64,000 bases of DNA from Candidatus Thorarchaeota archaeon (GCA_020348985.1 CP070761.1:979713-1043712); one strand, 5' to 3'. Shown: positions 28,208 through 36,226, numbered from the stretch's first letter. The notes: generated by a model not told the origin, from the letters alone. A program made the numbers and translations.

Positions 28208-29014
28208 CTAGATCTGACAAGTCTGGCAGTAGTTCGTCTTGAAACGATTGGCTCTGACTTCCGAAATTCGCCCACCACAGAGAGGACAAACCCCTCCGCC
28301 TTTTCCATGAATCATTAGAAAGTTCCTCTTCTCTGAACTGAACTCTGACAGCTCTCTCTGAGTCATGAGATCAAGGTACTTCGCGAGAACTTTCTTCATT
28401 GATTGATAGAGGGATTCCACTTCTACCTCCGATAGTGTTGACCTTCTCCTAAAAGGATGGATTCCAGCGTACAGCAGTATCTCATCCGCATACGCGTTTC
28501 CGATGCCCTTTACGAAACTCTGATTTCTGAGCACGTTTTTGATTTGCCCTCTGCGTCGCTTGAGCCTCAACGTGAATTCTTTAAGAGTTAGTTCAGAATC
28601 CAGGGGCGAAGGTCCACGTCCCTCAAAACCAGCGACATCTGAAAAGTCGTTTCCTCGTATCAGATAGACACGACTCATTTGCTTTCGGTCTCTGTACCAT
28701 AAGACCGTGGATTCCATTTGAAGAGAGAAGATGTCAGTCTTCCCGGGGGCCCTACCAGCATTATAGACCCAAAAGCGTCCAGCGAGCATAGGATTCACCA
28801 CAATCTTGACCCCACCGCTAAGATTGAACAATAGAAATTTCCCGTCAGCTTTGACTGAATTGAGCTTCTTACCTATGATGCCAGCCTCAAACTCGAGAGC
28901 TTCAATACCATGAATCACTAAATGATTATATACTGCCACATTCTGAATCACTTTGTCCCCGAAGTTCTCTGTCAGGCGGATGGCAATGATTTCAAGCTCA
29001 GGAAGTTCGGGCAT
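28208..29014 (-). CDS. mutM: Fpg/Nei family DNA glycosylase/AP lyase
   Basis: MPELPE N-terminus, GK, H2TH (Q....GIGN.YADE.L..A.IHP) and C-terminal zinc finger CPLC..CQTCQ. Confidence 0.88.
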   Translation of the reverse strand: MPELPELEIIAIRLTENFGDKVIQNVAVYNHLVIHGIEALEFEAGIIGKKLNSVKADGKFLLFNLSGGVKIVVNPMLAGRFWVYNAGRAPGKTDIFSLQMESTVLWYRDRKQMSRVYLIRGNDFSDVAGFEGRGPSPLDSELTLKEFTLRLKRRRGQIKNVLRNQSFVKGIGNAYADEILLYAGIHPFRRRSTLSEVEVESLYQSMKKVLAKYLDLMTQRELSEFSSEKRNFLMIHGKGGGVCPLCGGRISEVRANRFKTNYCQTCQI

Positions 29015-29111
29015 TTGAAACACCATGTGGACTTCGATATTTCTCCAAGCCGTTCAAGGCGAACATTAGTCTTATTTGGTTTCCTTCGAATGTAATAGCT
29101 AGGTAGGACAC

Positions 29112-29367: not shown

Positions 29368-29964
29368 ATGACCGAACCTACAGTTTTCCACATCCAGAAA
29401 GGCAACCTAGTAAGAATGGTGGACCCTGGAGCATTTGGAAGAGGGGACTGCTATCTAGTCGACGCAGGAATGAAGCTGTACATATGGATTGGTCCCAACA
29501 GCTCGGTCGACGAGAAGTTCTTGGCTGCAGCGGAAGCAGTCTTTCGAGATACGGCACTGAAGGGCGATGCAGACATTGATCACATTGATGGTGGAGATGA
29601 ACCCGAAGAGTTCAAGGCACTCTTTGACGACTTCAAACTCACGGATGAGGATACAGAAGGGATTCTGAAGAAGGTCCAGCTAGAGAAACGGGAACACAAA
29701 CTCTGGCGTGTTCATCATGAAGGTGATGACACGTTCTTTGCAGAGGTCCCTATGGCACGTGAGTCCCTCAGGAGCGACGATGTCTTCATCTTAGACACGT
29801 TCGATGACATCTTCGTCTGGCGCGGGGCTGAGGCAAGTGCCCGCGAGAAGTTTGACGCAACTATGATTGCACGTAGGTACGATGCGGAAAGAGTGGGCGT
29901 CCAAGAGATTGAACTGATAGAAGAGGGGAGTGAACCACAGGACTTCCTAGACCTGCTTGGATAA
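29368..29964 (+). CDS. Two-domain gelsolin-like actin-binding protein
   Basis: Two repeats: GDCYLVD....YIWIG..S..DE...EPEEF..LF and SDDVFILD....FVWRG..AS..E...EG.EP..F. Confidence 0.9.
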   Translation: MTEPTVFHIQKGNLVRMVDPGAFGRGDCYLVDAGMKLYIWIGPNSSVDEKFLAAAEAVFRDTALKGDADIDHIDGGDEPEEFKALFDDFKLTDEDTEGILKKVQLEKREHKLWRVHHEGDDTFFAEVPMARESLRSDDVFILDTFDDIFVWRGAEASAREKFDATMIARRYDAERVGVQEIELIEEGSEPQDFLDLLG

Positions 29965-29970
29965 TACTGC

Positions 29971-31395
29971 TCACAGCACCATCCGGTATCTCCCAGGACG
30001 CGGCTCATATACTACACCTGCACTTTTCATGTCGGAGAGAGTCTTTGCCGCCTCATGAGTCTGGACATTGGCCTCTCTTGCGATCTCGTCAAGTGTAGGT
30101 CCCAAGGAACCTCTTTTTCCTGTGTCTAGCCTTTCTAGCGCACGCCACACCTTTGAGTTGAACTCATGTAGGCGAGCAGAGTTCCCATACTTTTGAATTG
30201 AGTCCGCTTTGAACTGTGACAGTTCGATGAACTCCTTGAGAGCAGGTTCTAGTACACGATTCCAAGACGCTTGCAAATCCTTGGAAGTAACCTTGTCCCT
30301 CCATCCTGCTCGTGCTGAAGATCTGGCAATTCTGAGGGTACTGAGCGGCCGGCCCAACGAGTCTGCGTCCAACAGTCCACCTCTACCTAGAACAATCTCA
30401 TCAAAACCAAAGCTCTCTCTGAGAATATCTATGCGGGAGATTACGTGTTTCGTAGCGGAATCGACCGATCGCGATGCGACTGCAGGATTCAGCATATGAC
30501 TAGTGATGACCGCTTTGATAATCGGAAGCCTTAGCTCTTGGGCGTTGCTACTTTCGACCCAGAAATCCTCCGCTGCTAGTGCGAGAGGCACATCAGGAAG
30601 TGTCGCCGTCGTTGTAGTCGTCAATGCCGCTATTGAGACCTCGGAGAATCCGGCAGAATCTATTCGTTCAACGCAAGGTTTGAACATGTCCGCCTTGGAG
30701 AGCTGTCCTATCTCAAATCGCCAACTTCGATTTGATAGAACAGGGATTCCACCGACTATCCGTGTGGTCCTGCTCCTACGGCGTAGAGCAGGCGGTAGAA
30801 TGTTCCTCATGAAGGAGAGCAGTCTCTGAACCTGTGGACGGGATGCAATCGCTTGAATTCCTGCCGTCATCCCACCAATGTGTCCTTCATATGGCGGACT
30901 TGAAACAAAGAGTCGTGCAAAGACTCTCTTGCTTGCCTCGGCCATGCCCACATGCTCAAAGAGCAGACTGGAGAGTTGCCTGAGTCCTAGAGGAGGATCA
31001 ATCTCGGACAGAACATCAACAGGTAACATTTCGATCGATTCGACAAGGAATGCCCTCTGTAATCCTATCTCGGACAAAGAGATACTGTTGGCAAGGACTT
31101 CAACGCGAGCACCGTCAGGGGGATGGTTGATGCCTTCCGTGAGGTATAGAAAGACTCCACCGTGCATCCAAGGGCTGGGAGTCAACAGCACTATCGACCT
31201 ATTCCTAGTTTGGCGAGCAAATCCGCGTAGTCGATATGAGCGACCGCCTGCTCTATCTATGAATTGGCGCTGATATCGTAGCTCCCACGATGCCAGCTGG
31301 GCGCCGAACTCTCTGTCAAACAGATCGCTTGAAGCGATAACATCGCCCAGTCTGTCTCTGGTCATGTCTTTGGAGAGCAAGCGATCATTGTCCAT
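29971..31395 (-). CDS. Degenerate MCM-like protein (OB-like segment, inactivated AAA+, C-terminal wHTH)
   Basis: PDGARVEV OB segment, RPLSTLRIARSSARA..RDKVT..D sensor-II helix and G.VYEPRPGRY wHTH end; no Walker A/B. Confidence 0.6.
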   Translation of the reverse strand: MDNDRLLSKDMTRDRLGDVIASSDLFDREFGAQLASWELRYQRQFIDRAGGRSYRLRGFARQTRNRSIVLLTPSPWMHGGVFLYLTEGINHPPDGARVEVLANSISLSEIGLQRAFLVESIEMLPVDVLSEIDPPLGLRQLSSLLFEHVGMAEASKRVFARLFVSSPPYEGHIGGMTAGIQAIASRPQVQRLLSFMRNILPPALRRRSRTTRIVGGIPVLSNRSWRFEIGQLSKADMFKPCVERIDSAGFSEVSIAALTTTTTATLPDVPLALAAEDFWVESSNAQELRLPIIKAVITSHMLNPAVASRSVDSATKHVISRIDILRESFGFDEIVLGRGGLLDADSLGRPLSTLRIARSSARAGWRDKVTSKDLQASWNRVLEPALKEFIELSQFKADSIQKYGNSARLHEFNSKVWRALERLDTGKRGSLGPTLDEIAREANVQTHEAAKTLSDMKSAGVVYEPRPGRYRMVL

Positions 31396-31488: not shown

Positions 31489-32610
31489 CTAGGTTTGCCT
31501 CAACTCTTCGAATCGATGACAACGAACCCAGTATCCTGATTCGACTTCCCGATACTCAGGGACTTCTTCCTTACAGATTTCTGAAGTGTGTTCACATCTT
31601 GTTTGAAAGACACACCCGGAGGGAAGATCTACTGGATTTGGAGGAGGACCAGTTATGCCCCGAAGACGTTGTCCCTTCTCCTTCATACGTCTAATCATTT
31701 CCATTGTCGGGAACGCCATCAGAAAGGCCTCTGAAAATGGATGGCCAGGCTCATTGAGGACACGTGATGTATCGCCATATTCGACAATATGACCGCCAGT
31801 CATGACAGCAATCTTGTCAGCAGTCTCAGCGACAACGGCCCGGTTGTTGCTAATTACCAAGAAGGAAAGGCCCATCTCTTCCTTTGCGATTCTCAGTGCG
31901 TCAAGTATCCATCTCTGTACGGTTGAATCAACAGCCGTCGTTGGTTCATCAGCGATGACCAAAGAGGGATTTGGAATCAAAGCCATGGCAGTAAGCATTC
32001 GTTGAGATTCACCAACACTAAGACTTCCTGGATTGTCGATCAAGTCGTCGATCTCCAGATCAACAAGATCGAGGGTTTCCAGGACTCTTCTCCTGACCTC
32101 TTTCTCCGGAACACTATAGTCTTGTGCACGCAGCGCGTCAAGAGCCTGGGTCCAAAGACCGACAGTCGGATTGAGTGACTGAGATGTTCCCTGAGGAATG
32201 TATGTTATATCGCTTCCAATGATTTTCCGCCGCTCCTCTTTGTCCATGGTTAGGAGGTTCCTTCTATCAAAAACGATCTCGCCCTCTAAGCCCGGCAAGT
32301 CTTGGCCAATATCCTCAGAAGTAAGTCCTTTGCTTCGTGCGTCCTCACGGAGTGCCCAGAGATCTTTCGATTCTTTGTCGGCGCTTGAGGATGAATGAGA
32401 TCTAGCGATAGTCTCGAAGATTCCAAGGATTGCCAGTGCAACTGAGGACTTTCCTGATCCAGACTCTCCGAAAAGACCGACAGTCTCCCCTTTGTGCACC
32501 TTCAGACAAATGTCATTGACTGATTTGACAAGCTGGCCCCGGACAAGATAGTATGCCTTGAGACCTCTAATCTCAAGAATCGGAATCTCCCCAGATGGCA
32601 TATACTGCAT
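31489..32610 (-). CDS. Oligopeptide/dipeptide ABC transporter ATP-binding protein (OppD-like), orphan
   Basis: GESGSGKS, IADEPTTA.D and C-terminal GC.F..RC....C...P...V.CH motifs. Confidence 0.88.
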   Translation of the reverse strand: MQYMPSGEIPILEIRGLKAYYLVRGQLVKSVNDICLKVHKGETVGLFGESGSGKSSVALAILGIFETIARSHSSSSADKESKDLWALREDARSKGLTSEDIGQDLPGLEGEIVFDRRNLLTMDKEERRKIIGSDITYIPQGTSQSLNPTVGLWTQALDALRAQDYSVPEKEVRRRVLETLDLVDLEIDDLIDNPGSLSVGESQRMLTAMALIPNPSLVIADEPTTAVDSTVQRWILDALRIAKEEMGLSFLVISNNRAVVAETADKIAVMTGGHIVEYGDTSRVLNEPGHPFSEAFLMAFPTMEMIRRMKEKGQRLRGITGPPPNPVDLPSGCVFQTRCEHTSEICKEEVPEYREVESGYWVRCHRFEELRQT

Positions 32611-32665: not shown

Positions 32666-33631
32666 TCAGGATGCCCTATCTTGTTTCGTTCTCTGACGAA
32701 GATACTCCTTGTAGGCTCGTGGATACATCGCTCCCAGTTCCTCTATTGAGGGAAGCCTGTCGGAATAAGGAATATAAAACTGGCCAGGTTTCACGCTCCA
32801 GACTTCTTGGTCTATGATTTCCCGCAGTTGCTTATTGATTTCAAAGCCAATGAAGTGTCTCCAGTTGCCGCGAGCGGCTGCGGCTGTGGTTCCATTTCCC
32901 ATGAATGGATCCAGGACCAAATCACCAGGCTGAGATGAGAAGTCAATACATCGCTGAACAACCTGTAAGGGTAGCTTCGTGCTATTCTTCGATTGCCCGG
33001 GTCTGTAATCTCGATTTATGATCCAGACATCTTCAGGGTAGTTCTCCCATTTGTTGAAGAAGTAGTTCTTTGGATCATTTGTGAAGAGAATCAAATGATA
33101 ATGGCTTGTCACGAATCTTCTCTTAGTGAATACACCGAACTGATACTTCCAGATGATGTGGTTCATCATGGCAAGTCCTGCTTTGCGCGCGGATCTGAGA
33201 ATGTCCTCGAGATTGTTCCACCCGCTGAATATGTAGGCTGAGCCCGTGTCTTTCAGAATACGCGGAATCTCACCAATCCATTCGCTTGTGAATTGATCAT
33301 AGGAAGAGAGGACTTCTTCATAGCCTTCAACAACTCTTGTACCATCGCGATTGTACATACTGCTCTTGCCATCGAAATCAATTCCAAACGGCGGATCTGC
33401 AACAATCAGATCAATGGAATCAGAAGGTAGATCTCGCATTCCTTTGACACAGTCTACATACCGGACAGAGTCGAGCTTGACGTCATCTCTGGAACGTGAA
33501 TTCTCGTAGAGATTCTTTGCCTCCTCAGCGGACCAGTCAAAGTCCGGGCGAAAGAAGAACTTCGCTAGATGCGGAACATACTTCCGCCTAAGTCCATCCT
33601 GGGACTTCTTCTGGTCGGTAGATTCATCCAT
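32666..33631 (-). CDS. Site-specific DNA methyltransferase (N4/N6, beta class), orphan
   Basis: DL...DPPF motif IV precedes LDPFMGNGTT motif I. Confidence 0.9.
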   Translation of the reverse strand: MDESTDQKKSQDGLRRKYVPHLAKFFFRPDFDWSAEEAKNLYENSRSRDDVKLDSVRYVDCVKGMRDLPSDSIDLIVADPPFGIDFDGKSSMYNRDGTRVVEGYEEVLSSYDQFTSEWIGEIPRILKDTGSAYIFSGWNNLEDILRSARKAGLAMMNHIIWKYQFGVFTKRRFVTSHYHLILFTNDPKNYFFNKWENYPEDVWIINRDYRPGQSKNSTKLPLQVVQRCIDFSSQPGDLVLDPFMGNGTTAAAARGNWRHFIGFEINKQLREIIDQEVWSVKPGQFYIPYSDRLPSIEELGAMYPRAYKEYLRQRTKQDRAS

Positions 33632-33720: not shown

Positions 33721-34803
33721 CTACCAAAGGTCGGAGGGGTCTACTCCTCGTGATATTGCCTTCTGAGTCATCCAGTCCGTGAACTTCTCAGGAGGTTCGT
33801 GCTTCTTGTCGCTTCTGGGTGCCAGACTAAGTGCGCCTTCAGGGCAGACTGTTGTACAGACACCACAACCAATGCAGGTGTTCTTGTCAATCTCCAGTAT
33901 GTCTCCTGGCACGCTCAGAGCGTCAAATTGGCATCGTTCAATACAGGTCTCACAGCCAGTGCAAAGATCCTCATCGACATAAGCGAGGAAGTTGGACTTT
34001 ACAAAAGCATGTGGTGCACCAGATTCGTAAACACCCCTAAGGATGCTACAACAACAAGTACAGCAATTGCAAATGTAAGTATGTCCAGTTTGGATGTTCA
34101 TAGTGCAGTGAACCAACCCTGCTTCTTCCGCCTCTCGGAGATGCTGAAGAGATTCTTCCTTAGTGATTGCTCTGATCGTGCGATTATCGTCAAACGCATT
34201 CTCTTTTTTGGGTGCGAATGTAAGACAAATAGAAGTGGGATACTTGCAGGTGTTGTCAAGAAGAGCTTGCTGCGTCCTGCAGATGCAATCCTGTACACCC
34301 CACGATTTTGAGTTCTCTACTATCTGCTCTGCAACTTCATACGGGTACACTTCAAGCTCTGTGTCGATAGCTCGATTAACTGGAAGGACTTGGAAAAGCT
34401 CCGGCTTTGTGCCAAAGAGATCTCCCCCCTTGCTCTTTAGGAAAAGATCCTCTGAGAGCTTGGCAAACTCAGAGTCCATTCTGCCTAGCTGTTCTTCGAA
34501 GATGCCGATGACATATGGGATTAGGCAGTACCGCCTTCCTGTGCTCGAATTCCAGGCATGTATCTGTCCTTTCTCCGCCATGGTTTCGAGGATTGTTACG
34601 AGATTGCCTGGTTCTCTATCTAGACGCGTAGCCATTTCCTCAACCGTTTCGCCTCGAAGCCTCATGTTGCTGGCAAGTTCTGCCTCCTCCGGAGTGAAGA
34701 TCCATTTCAACACCTTGAGATGGGTTCCATCTTCAGTTTGAGGAAAGCTGTTGGGAATCTTGTCGAGTACGTCCGCAAGTCTTTGATATACATCGTCAGT
34801 CAT
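33721..34803 (-). CDS. Multi-Fe-S cluster protein with C-terminal 2x[4Fe-4S] domain
   Basis: IFTPEEA.LA, C.CR, ICNCC.CCC and two CxxCxxCxxxC motifs. Confidence 0.85.
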   Translation of the reverse strand: MTDDVYQRLADVLDKIPNSFPQTEDGTHLKVLKWIFTPEEAELASNMRLRGETVEEMATRLDREPGNLVTILETMAEKGQIHAWNSSTGRRYCLIPYVIGIFEEQLGRMDSEFAKLSEDLFLKSKGGDLFGTKPELFQVLPVNRAIDTELEVYPYEVAEQIVENSKSWGVQDCICRTQQALLDNTCKYPTSICLTFAPKKENAFDDNRTIRAITKEESLQHLREAEEAGLVHCTMNIQTGHTYICNCCTCCCSILRGVYESGAPHAFVKSNFLAYVDEDLCTGCETCIERCQFDALSVPGDILEIDKNTCIGCGVCTTVCPEGALSLAPRSDKKHEPPEKFTDWMTQKAISRGVDPSDLW

Positions 34804-34888: not shown

Positions 34889-36226
34889 TCATGCCGGGCA
34901 CTGCAGTGTGATTCCAATCGGCCCGAGCTCATAATTGACTCGAACAATTGCATCACTGCACTCGACGCCTCTTCCCAGGAGAGCGAGCAGGAGAATCTGT
35001 TGGTAAGGTGGTAGGTATGGAATCCCACTGGCCTTTAGAACCGCTGAGTAGGATTCTCTAACGTCATCTCGTTCTAGACAGGACTCAAGCTGTTTTAGTG
35101 TAGCCTTGTTTTCGAGGAGCATCTCAGAGATTTTCTTCAGGAATATATCCTTTGGAACATTTACTGATGGGCCAAACAACCTCTCTACATTAGCCTCGAA
35201 CCAGTCACGAAGCTGTTCGACTGTGTAGTGAGGAATGACTGTTGGAGGGTTTCCTGCTTCATCTGCGGCAAGAACCCTGACGAGACCCCGTTTTTCAGCC
35301 GAAATCACGAAATCAGTCATGCGTTGGTAGCCAATGTCCTCGTACTCCACACCACTTTCCTCGAGTCCCTCGTCCAAGGCTTGAATCTCTGTGGAAGCAC
35401 CTTGGTCAACTCGGTCTTCGACAAGCTTGACGAAAGTCTCATACGCGGTCTTGGTTTCATTGACAATCTTTACTGTCTCAGGTGTGACACTCTCGGGAAC
35501 AGTCAGTAGGGTCCCAGGCAGGGTTCCCTCCAGTGAAACATATCCTTCACTCTCGGCCCACTCTAGGAACTCTGTCCAACCAGAGAAGCCCATGAGGATT
35601 TCGTTAAAGTCAGGGTTGAGTGACACCATCACGTGTTTGACATGGCCCATTCCTGGCTTGTTCCCAGCGTCAACAACGGCACGAATCGCTTCCTGGAGCT
35701 TAACTGCGACAATCCTGCGATACTCATCAGAGCCCATTAAGCTGGCATCACATTCACTGGGATCTCTGCACTCGATGGCCGACGGCCGATACGAATGGAT
35801 GTCGGTATACTTTGTAGCCAAATCAAAAAGGTCGGACGCGGTTATCAAAGGGTTGCTGATGAGCCAGATTTGCAGGCCCTTCTGTCGAAGTGCTCCCAAT
35901 ACAAGCTTGAAATCACCATCACCAGTAATCAGGACGTAATTTGTTGTCTCTGAGTAGTGCATCAGGTGATCAATGATGTATGCAGCCATTTTGTAGTCTG
36001 CTGCATTCTCGGTGTCAGATGGAATATGGACGAGATCATATCCCAGTGAATAGAGGTCTTCAGCAAGCTCACGTCGATTATCCCAATCTGCAAATGCATA
36101 CATTCTGTCGACAGTGCCCAGAGAATGGATTGCCTCGGTCATCGTTCGGTGCGTATCACTATCGTCGTGAACGTTTTCAACATCCCAGAAGACAGCTAGA
36201 TGCGTAGCACTATCTGTTTCGGTCAA
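34889..36226 (-). CDS. NYN (PIN-like) domain protein with OST-HTH/LOTUS-like repeats
   Basis: VFWDVEN, NAAD and ITGDGDF acidic residues; PDF.E...GF..W.EFL and Y...GY..M.DF LOTUS-like segments. Confidence 0.82.
   Translation of the reverse strand: MTETDSATHLAVFWDVENVHDDSDTHRTMTEAIHSLGTVDRMYAFADWDNRRELAEDLYSLGYDLVHIPSDTENAADYKMAAYIIDHLMHYSETTNYVLITGDGDFKLVLGALRQKGLQIWLISNPLITASDLFDLATKYTDIHSYRPSAIECRDPSECDASLMGSDEYRRIVAVKLQEAIRAVVDAGNKPGMGHVKHVMVSLNPDFNEILMGFSGWTEFLEWAESEGYVSLEGTLPGTLLTVPESVTPETVKIVNETKTAYETFVKLVEDRVDQGASTEIQALDEGLEESGVEYEDIGYQRMTDFVISAEKRGLVRVLAADEAGNPPTVIPHYTVEQLRDWFEANVERLFGPSVNVPKDIFLKKISEMLLENKATLKQLESCLERDDVRESYSAVLKASGIPYLPPYQQILLLALLGRGVECSDAIVRVNYELGPIGITLQCPA

Follow-up and report, generated by a model that had tools for sequence, protein, structure and literature searches.

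A probable ATPase-dead paralogue of the MCM helicase in Thorarchaeota, with relatives in Asgard and TACK archaea

An unannotated gene and its surroundings

The window, that is, the whole 64,000-nucleotide stretch of DNA analysed here (CP070761.1:979713-1043712 of GCA_020348985.1), belongs to a Candidatus Thorarchaeota archaeon whose genome is a single 3.16-Mb contig; a gelsolin gene and the named sources of the P0001 homologues likewise assign it to a Thorarchaeota (Asgard) chromosome. It carries an unannotated gene for a protein of 474 residues, P0001. The reading frame is unbroken over 474 codons, from an ATG start to a TGA stop, and is thus intact, as a sequence-only reading of this DNA had described it. 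Relatives of P0001 that carry a name in their source records are all called "hypothetical protein" and have no Pfam domain. The parts of the gene and the genes on either side are collected in Table 1.

Table 1. The P0001 gene, its parts and its neighbours, in window coordinates
Feature	Coordinates	Strand	Remarks
Fpg/Nei glycosylase	28208-29026		Downstream of P0001
Gelsolin-domain protein	29368-29964	(+)	Two repeats; eukaryotic signature protein; convergent with P0001
P0001, probable ATPase-dead MCM paralogue	29971..31395	(-)	474 aa + TGA stop; intact ORF; AlphaFold2 model; top structural matches all MCM
P0001: C-terminal MCM-type winged helix, residues 406-474	29974..30180	(-)	Profile match to 2m45; winged-helix structural matches
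P0001: predicted lid (alpha-helical) domain, residues 301-405	30181..30495	(-)	Motif GRPLSxLRxAxSxARA and a long connecting helix
P0001: predicted degenerate, shortened AAA+ alpha/beta core, residues 177-300	30496..30867	(-)	Without P-loop, Walker B, sensor 1 and arginine finger
P0001: linker and pre-core helices, residues 126-176	30868..31020	(-)	Ends in the family motif VSSPP-x6-GG
P0001: predicted compact OB fold, residues 46-125	31021..31260	(-)	No zinc-finger insert; six strands at 46-123 in the AlphaFold2 model
P0001: N-terminal segment, residues 1-45	31261..31395	(-)	Disordered start and one helix (36-44)
OppD/DppD-like ABC transporter ATPase	31489-32610	(-)	Upstream, between the methyltransferase and P0001
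Beta-class (CcrM-like, PF01555) N6/N4 DNA methyltransferase	32666-33631	(-)	Upstream of P0001
4Fe-4S protein	33721-34803	(-)	Upstream of P0001
NYN-domain protein	34889-36226	(-)	Upstream of P0001

Downstream, the stop codons of P0001 and the gelsolin gene are separated by 6 bp. This convergence is kept in most Thorarchaeota loci, where the gelsolin orthologues are 69-82% identical versus about 50-57% for those of P0001; two peptidase-like genes also lie on this side. Upstream, the product of the ABC ATPase gene fits the ABC_tran model well from residue 108 onward only. The gene occupies that place in none of 14 related Thorarchaeota loci (0/14) and therefore looks like a lineage-specific insertion. 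The methyltransferase is solitary: no restriction enzyme was recognised alongside it.

The canonical MCM gene of the same genome lies at ~48.5-50.7 kb of the contig (G000:C1) and encodes an intein-free protein of 694 residues; the two Orc1/Cdc6 genes of the host are at ~16 kb and ~55 kb (G000:C1). P0001 is ~1 Mb away from this cluster. In many other Asgard genomes, canonical MCM genes form frames of 1000-2300 residues that PF00493 matches in two to four pieces (G003, G012, G014, G018, G019, G024-G027, G029, G035 and others), a pattern that would be expected for inteins within the MCM ATPase domain.

Among distant relatives of P0001, the seven loci examined revealed no shared neighbourhood. One Methanomethylicaceae member (L047:5740-8788, JAVZKW010000016.1) faces an Orc1/Cdc6 gene in convergent orientation; Cren7 and TFIIB genes lie close by, and the intergenic gaps measure about 550 and 790 bp. 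The region may be a replication-origin region, and the Orc1/Cdc6 neighbour, as a single case, is an anecdote. Two further distant members (L054:2290-3051 and L055:1606-2343) are shorter, at 416-423 residues, and each has a MobB and FeS-domain gene (PF03205, PF04060) at most 2 kb upstream, which is the sole recurring neighbour among the distant relatives examined.

Predicted fold and likeness to MCM

An AlphaFold2 model of P0001, built on an alignment of 54 family sequences, has a mean pLDDT of 89.5 and a pTM of 0.85. The predicted fold is a small OB fold followed by a shortened AAA+ core, a lid, and a C-terminal winged helix; canonical archaeal MCM proteins (8x7t, SsoMCM 4fdg and 6mii, and 4r7z) have the same domains in the same order and are the best structural matches, with Z scores of about 17. 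In a Foldseek search of the PDB, the top 50 matches are all MCM chains, with E values down to 3e-12. In a VIA all-against-representatives search, eleven MCM entries come first (Z 17.6-13.8), and their alignments span model residues ~44-394, covering the OB and AAA+ tiers; the AAA+ domain of PfMCM (4r7z) aligns at Z 17.3 with an rmsd of 4.0 Å over 229 residues. By the same measure, the OB region (residues 50-126) matches the OB fold of PriB at Z 7.3, and numerous winged helices align with the final 70 residues at Z about 8-9. A Bathyarchaeota family member, modelled from an alignment that left out the close Thorarchaeota orthologues, yields the same MCM matches (Z 17.6-14.4; pLDDT 85.9). Since an OB fold, an AAA+ core, and a winged helix are all predicted and MCMs match first, the similarity exceeds that of a generic winged helix; the fold comparison that the sequence-only reading had proposed thus comes out for OB plus AAA+.

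The model also indicates where P0001 departs from MCM. Its first 45 residues occupy the place of the MCM helical subdomain A; residues 1-11 have a pLDDT below 50, E38 and F45 are conserved in the family, and alignments to MCM structures begin at residues 43-46. The OB fold is followed by the pre-core helices (128-131, 138-145, and 153-164), which belong to the best-conserved segment of the protein within Thorarchaeota (residues 126-176, 69% identity), where S165, P167, G174, and G175 are invariant or almost so across the family. The lid is modelled as helices 308-329, 349-363, and 371-403. Conserved motifs specific to the family are VSSPP-x6-GG, ExS at 252-254, DxP at 268-270, P304, and GRPxS.

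At the level of sequence, significant likeness to MCM appears only in the last lid helix and the winged helix. Residues 353-473 of P0001 match MCM 560-692: the phmmer match to residues 560-682 of the MCM in PDB 8x7t has an E value of 3.7e-4, the match to the genome's own 694-residue MCM has an E value of 1.7e-4 at 27% identity, and positions 561-682 of NCBIfam NF040949 match the C-terminal 120 residues at E 0.0034. Searched against the PDB, the 54-sequence family profile reaches SsoMCM 4fdg at E 3.9e-10, 8x7t at 1.5e-9, and the NMR structure of the SsoMCM winged helix, 2m45, at 6.1e-9. In an hhalign comparison of the family with 17 intein-free Asgard MCMs (probability 96%, E 2e-9), the entire signal is C-terminal. 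R355, R362, and the YEPxxGxY motif of the wing are shared with canonical MCM.

Residues 1-345 are insignificant against the 17 Asgard MCMs (E 0.19 by hhalign; 0.085 for residues 1-135 and 0.31 for residues 125-345), so the homology of the OB and AAA+ tiers is argued from the predicted structure together with weak, consistent anchors. In the local profile alignment, G95/G102 of the family fall on the OB-fold 'PGD..G' of MCM, helix 285-299 falls on 'LAxHILxLH', and G174 G175 fall on 'LFGG'. Features of the MCM family are thus present on two kinds of evidence: the OB fold (strands 46-123) and an MCM-type AAA+ core by predicted structure, and the lid helix and winged helix by profile matches.

The sequence-only reading had picked out four segments in MCM order, and these are present, mapping in the model to OB strands (81-123), pre-core helices (141-163), the lid helix (348-374), and the wing (455-470). 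The last two are significant against MCM. The first two are insignificant and, taken as sequence matches, seem indistinguishable from chance; their positions fit both the structural match and the anchors at G95/G102 and G174 G175.

Pfam, NCBIfam, and PADLOC scans of P0001 returned no model at its cut-off. The protein stays below the thresholds for MCM, MCM_OB, and MCM_C (PF00493, PF17207, and PF21100) and for NF040949, scoring 11.5 bits against a cut-off of 27 for MCM_C and 15.7 against 940 for NF040949. Searched against the genome, the Pfam MCM_OB profile has no match at the P0001 locus, and PF00493 recognises just two genes, the canonical MCM and an unrelated AAA+ gene.

ATPase motifs, selection, and spread of the family

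P0001 is 220 residues shorter than the MCM of its own genome and lacks subdomain A and the zinc finger; relative to canonical MCM, it also lacks Walker A, Walker B, sensor 1, and the arginine finger. The Walker A signature [AG]x4GK[ST] occurs at the junction of strand 1 and helix 1 in 0/54 family members. In the model, three residues lie between strand 177-182 and helix 186-199, and in both global and local profile alignments the column of the Walker A lysine (MCM GDPGxxKS) holds V, S, or A in the family. This residue-level mapping of motifs comes from low-confidence profile alignment, not from structural superposition. In a low-confidence region of both alignments, Walker B (IDEFDKM) falls in a gap, the sensor 1 asparagine column is variable (T/K/P/R), and the column of the SRFD arginine finger holds S/E/D/A. 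A conserved acidic pair or arginine elsewhere in the AAA+ core was found nowhere across the family.

Between anchors shared with its own genome's MCM (GG to H300, versus G321-G322 to H503), the AAA+ core is ~57 residues shorter, which would fit a loss of the DNA-translocating hairpins. The sole cysteine of P0001 (C241) lies outside the OB region, which means that there is no zinc finger; in the MCM of the same genome, the zinc-finger cysteines C146, C153, C172, and C175 are invariant. The sequence-only reading, which had found Walker A, Walker B, SRFD, and zinc finger unrecognisable in this one protein, is borne out across the family. Basic residues of the lid helix are kept: R362 in 54/54 members, with R or K at position 355 in 46/54 and at position 349 in 50/54. 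On sensor 2, the alignments differ, as hhalign sets R349 on R567 of MCM and the ungapped phmmer extension sets G348 there. With all ATP-handling motifs lost, P0001 is most likely a non-motor binding protein; canonical ATP binding and hydrolysis would be absent, and with them translocation on DNA.

The gene is under purifying selection. Pairwise dN/dS among orthologues, a comparison that had been suggested from the sequence, is 0.09-0.11 at unsaturated dS of 0.24-0.82. In a sample of 201 Asgard genomes, a full-length copy is present in all 43 sampled genomes of the archaeal family to which the window belongs (43/43); outside that family, full-length copies are scattered only (G031, G199, G048, G178, and G111), and the remaining profile matches are MCM C-termini or small winged-helix proteins.

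Family members form more than 200 clusters at 90% identity, and an exhaustive search of 1.84 billion representatives adds ~25 full-length clusters at 18-31% identity. Distant full-length relatives with source names come from Odinarchaeota, Methanomethylicaceae, Bathyarchaeota, and Nitrososphaerota. A word-index search with the family alignment returned the same Thorarchaeota proteins and nothing else, and IMG/VR and phage records yielded no relative in a search that detects close relatives of a single protein only. The family is old and spans Asgard and TACK archaea.

Many Asgard genomes also contain ORFs of ~210-265 residues that match the winged-helix part of the family profile only (positions ~395-468; for example, G070:C81:41196-41402 and G047:C4:14768-14980). 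The profile also matches the winged-helix domains of archaeal RPA32 in the PDB (9f27 and 8oej), so these small ORFs may be RPA32-like.

Together, the MCM fold, the family-wide loss of motifs, and purifying selection support the proposal, first made from the sequence, that P0001 is a catalytically dead MCM paralogue; we put the probability of this reading at roughly 0.9.

Known MCM relatives and possible roles

Two known relatives of MCM bear comparison with P0001. MCM2 of Methanopyrus kandleri (3f8t) is an inactive, monomer-sized MCM homologue with internal deletions and without a conserved Walker A (PMC2933578). Its structure matches the P0001 model at Z 16.7 (VIA), and it is absent among the best 60 of 84 family-profile matches to PDB chains (E up to 10). 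Only one euryarchaeal species is known to have the M. kandleri protein; the P0001 family, by contrast, is found in Asgard and TACK archaea and keeps the MCM-type winged helix. The second, MCM-BP, has an MCM-like domain without Walker A and acts on the MCM2-7 complex, not as a motor (PMC9018068); according to a figure legend, it keeps Walker B and arginine-finger elements (PMC9018068), which P0001, unlike MCM-BP, lacks. The likeness of P0001 to MCM-BP and MCMDC2 is one of concept, that of a non-motor MCM-like domain. By sequence, P0001 is not a member of MCM-BP: MCM_bind (PF09739) has no match in an hmmscan of P0001, nor anywhere in the genome at E up to 10.

A 2025 survey of the Asgard replisome places MCM among mostly single-copy genes and leaves a protein of P0001 type unmentioned (PMC12680538), and a phylogenomic paper on the CMG complex makes no mention of such a dead MCM (PMC3307487). 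No description of the family was found in the literature searched.

We consider it likely that P0001 is a vertically inherited, motif-stripped derivative of MCM, and probably a module that binds DNA or replication factors without acting as a motor. On this account, the protein would descend vertically from the archaeal MCM replicative helicase and would have retained the body plan (OB fold, helix-2-insert-type AAA+ core, lid, and MCM-type winged helix) while losing subdomain A, the zinc finger, the P-loop, Walker B, sensor 1, the arginine finger, and ~57 core residues. In Sulfolobus, the winged helix of MCM contacts ORB/origin-bound Orc1-1 (PMC12141716). Because the MCM-like part of P0001 is the lid helix and winged helix, the part that contacts Orc1-1 in Sulfolobus, this module, aided by the OB fold, would likely engage DNA or partners of the MCM C-terminus. 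P0001 could then take part in replication initiation or in the handling of MCM, whether as adaptor, as competitor, or as regulator. A link to replication is a tentative assignment, to which we give slightly less than even odds; the distance of ~1 Mb from the MCM and Orc1/Cdc6 cluster and the lack of a shared replication neighbourhood among the distant relatives examined speak against it. An unrelated chromatin role is an alternative. A more far-reaching proposal goes further on age and partners: an ancient non-catalytic MCM paralogue, predating the split of Asgard and TACK archaea, that binds MCM or Orc1/Cdc6 as a licensing factor and is the archaeal counterpart of MCM-BP or Cdt1, such that pseudo-ATPase partners of MCM would be pre-eukaryotic. 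As a whole, this proposal is doubtful.

The OB tier of MCM mediates ring formation, and the MCM-like body plan of P0001 includes this tier; hhalign also places a basic residue, kept in 50/54 members, on the trans-acting sensor 2. P0001 could thus be a true subunit of a heteromeric ring with canonical MCM, as the sequence-only reading had suggested, but we find this unlikely. P0001 has neither an arginine finger nor a zinc finger, and its core is shortened, so that such a ring would contain two inactive ATP sites and an incomplete N-terminal tier. Nor is the gene co-localised with mcm. Complex modelling of MCM 100-610 with P0001 30-474, supplied as alignments, scored 0.00 in two runs without controls, a result that weighs neither for nor against binding.

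The neighbouring methyltransferase offers another partner, for which P0001 would be a specificity or targeting subunit within an epigenetic or restriction-modification-like module. In 9/12 Thorarchaeota loci, a PF01555 gene borders on the 5' end of the orthologue or runs into it; the window has one as well (32666-33631). In the window, however, the ABC ATPase gene separates the pair; the same-genus G005, and also G016, keep the dead MCM with no methyltransferase beside it, none adjoins the gene in relatives from other lineages, and PADLOC finds 0 defence families for P0001. The methyltransferase is a frequent but dispensable neighbour, and the partnership is quite unlikely. A restriction-modification or anti-phage component was considered separately and rejected, with 0 PADLOC families and a methyltransferase linkage that is not obligate.

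An origin outside MCM is very unlikely; on that view, an OB fold and a winged helix would have been added to another helix-2-insert AAA+ protein (of MoxR/RavA, BchI, ComM, or BrxL type). Such proteins are the next-best matches to the model (RavA at Z 12.2, BchI at 10.1, BrxL at 8.9, and ComM at 8.6, by VIA), but they trail the MCMs by 2-5 Z units, the MCM alignments extend over the OB tier as well, and the significant sequence matches of the lid helix and winged helix are to MCM. Extra MCM copies from mobile elements are frequent in archaeal genomes (reviewer discussion, PMC3307487), but that P0001 is a decaying viral or plasmid remnant, or a cryptically active ATPase, is hardly credible given a dN/dS of about 0.1, universal presence in its own family in a stable chromosomal context among housekeeping genes, no relative in IMG/VR or phage records (close-relative search), and a P-loop in 0/54 members.

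Read as a dead MCM paralogue, P0001 represents a second, MCM-derived gene without ATPase motifs that is under selection, universal in one Asgard family, and accompanied by relatives in TACK archaea. Archaeal MCM is usually taken to be a single-copy, homohexameric helicase; the P0001 family points to an unstudied, non-motor role of the MCM fold in archaea. The sequence-only reading had suggested relevance to the origin of heteromeric MCM rings; within the Asgard sample, every genome of the window's own family has the gene, other lineages have it patchily, and it occurs in TACK archaea as well. Should P0001 bind MCM or Orc1/Cdc6, the pseudo-ATPase relatives of MCM in eukaryotes, such as MCM-BP, would have a prokaryotic precedent, and the protein would offer a tractable handle on helicase loading or regulation in the lineage closest to eukaryotes.
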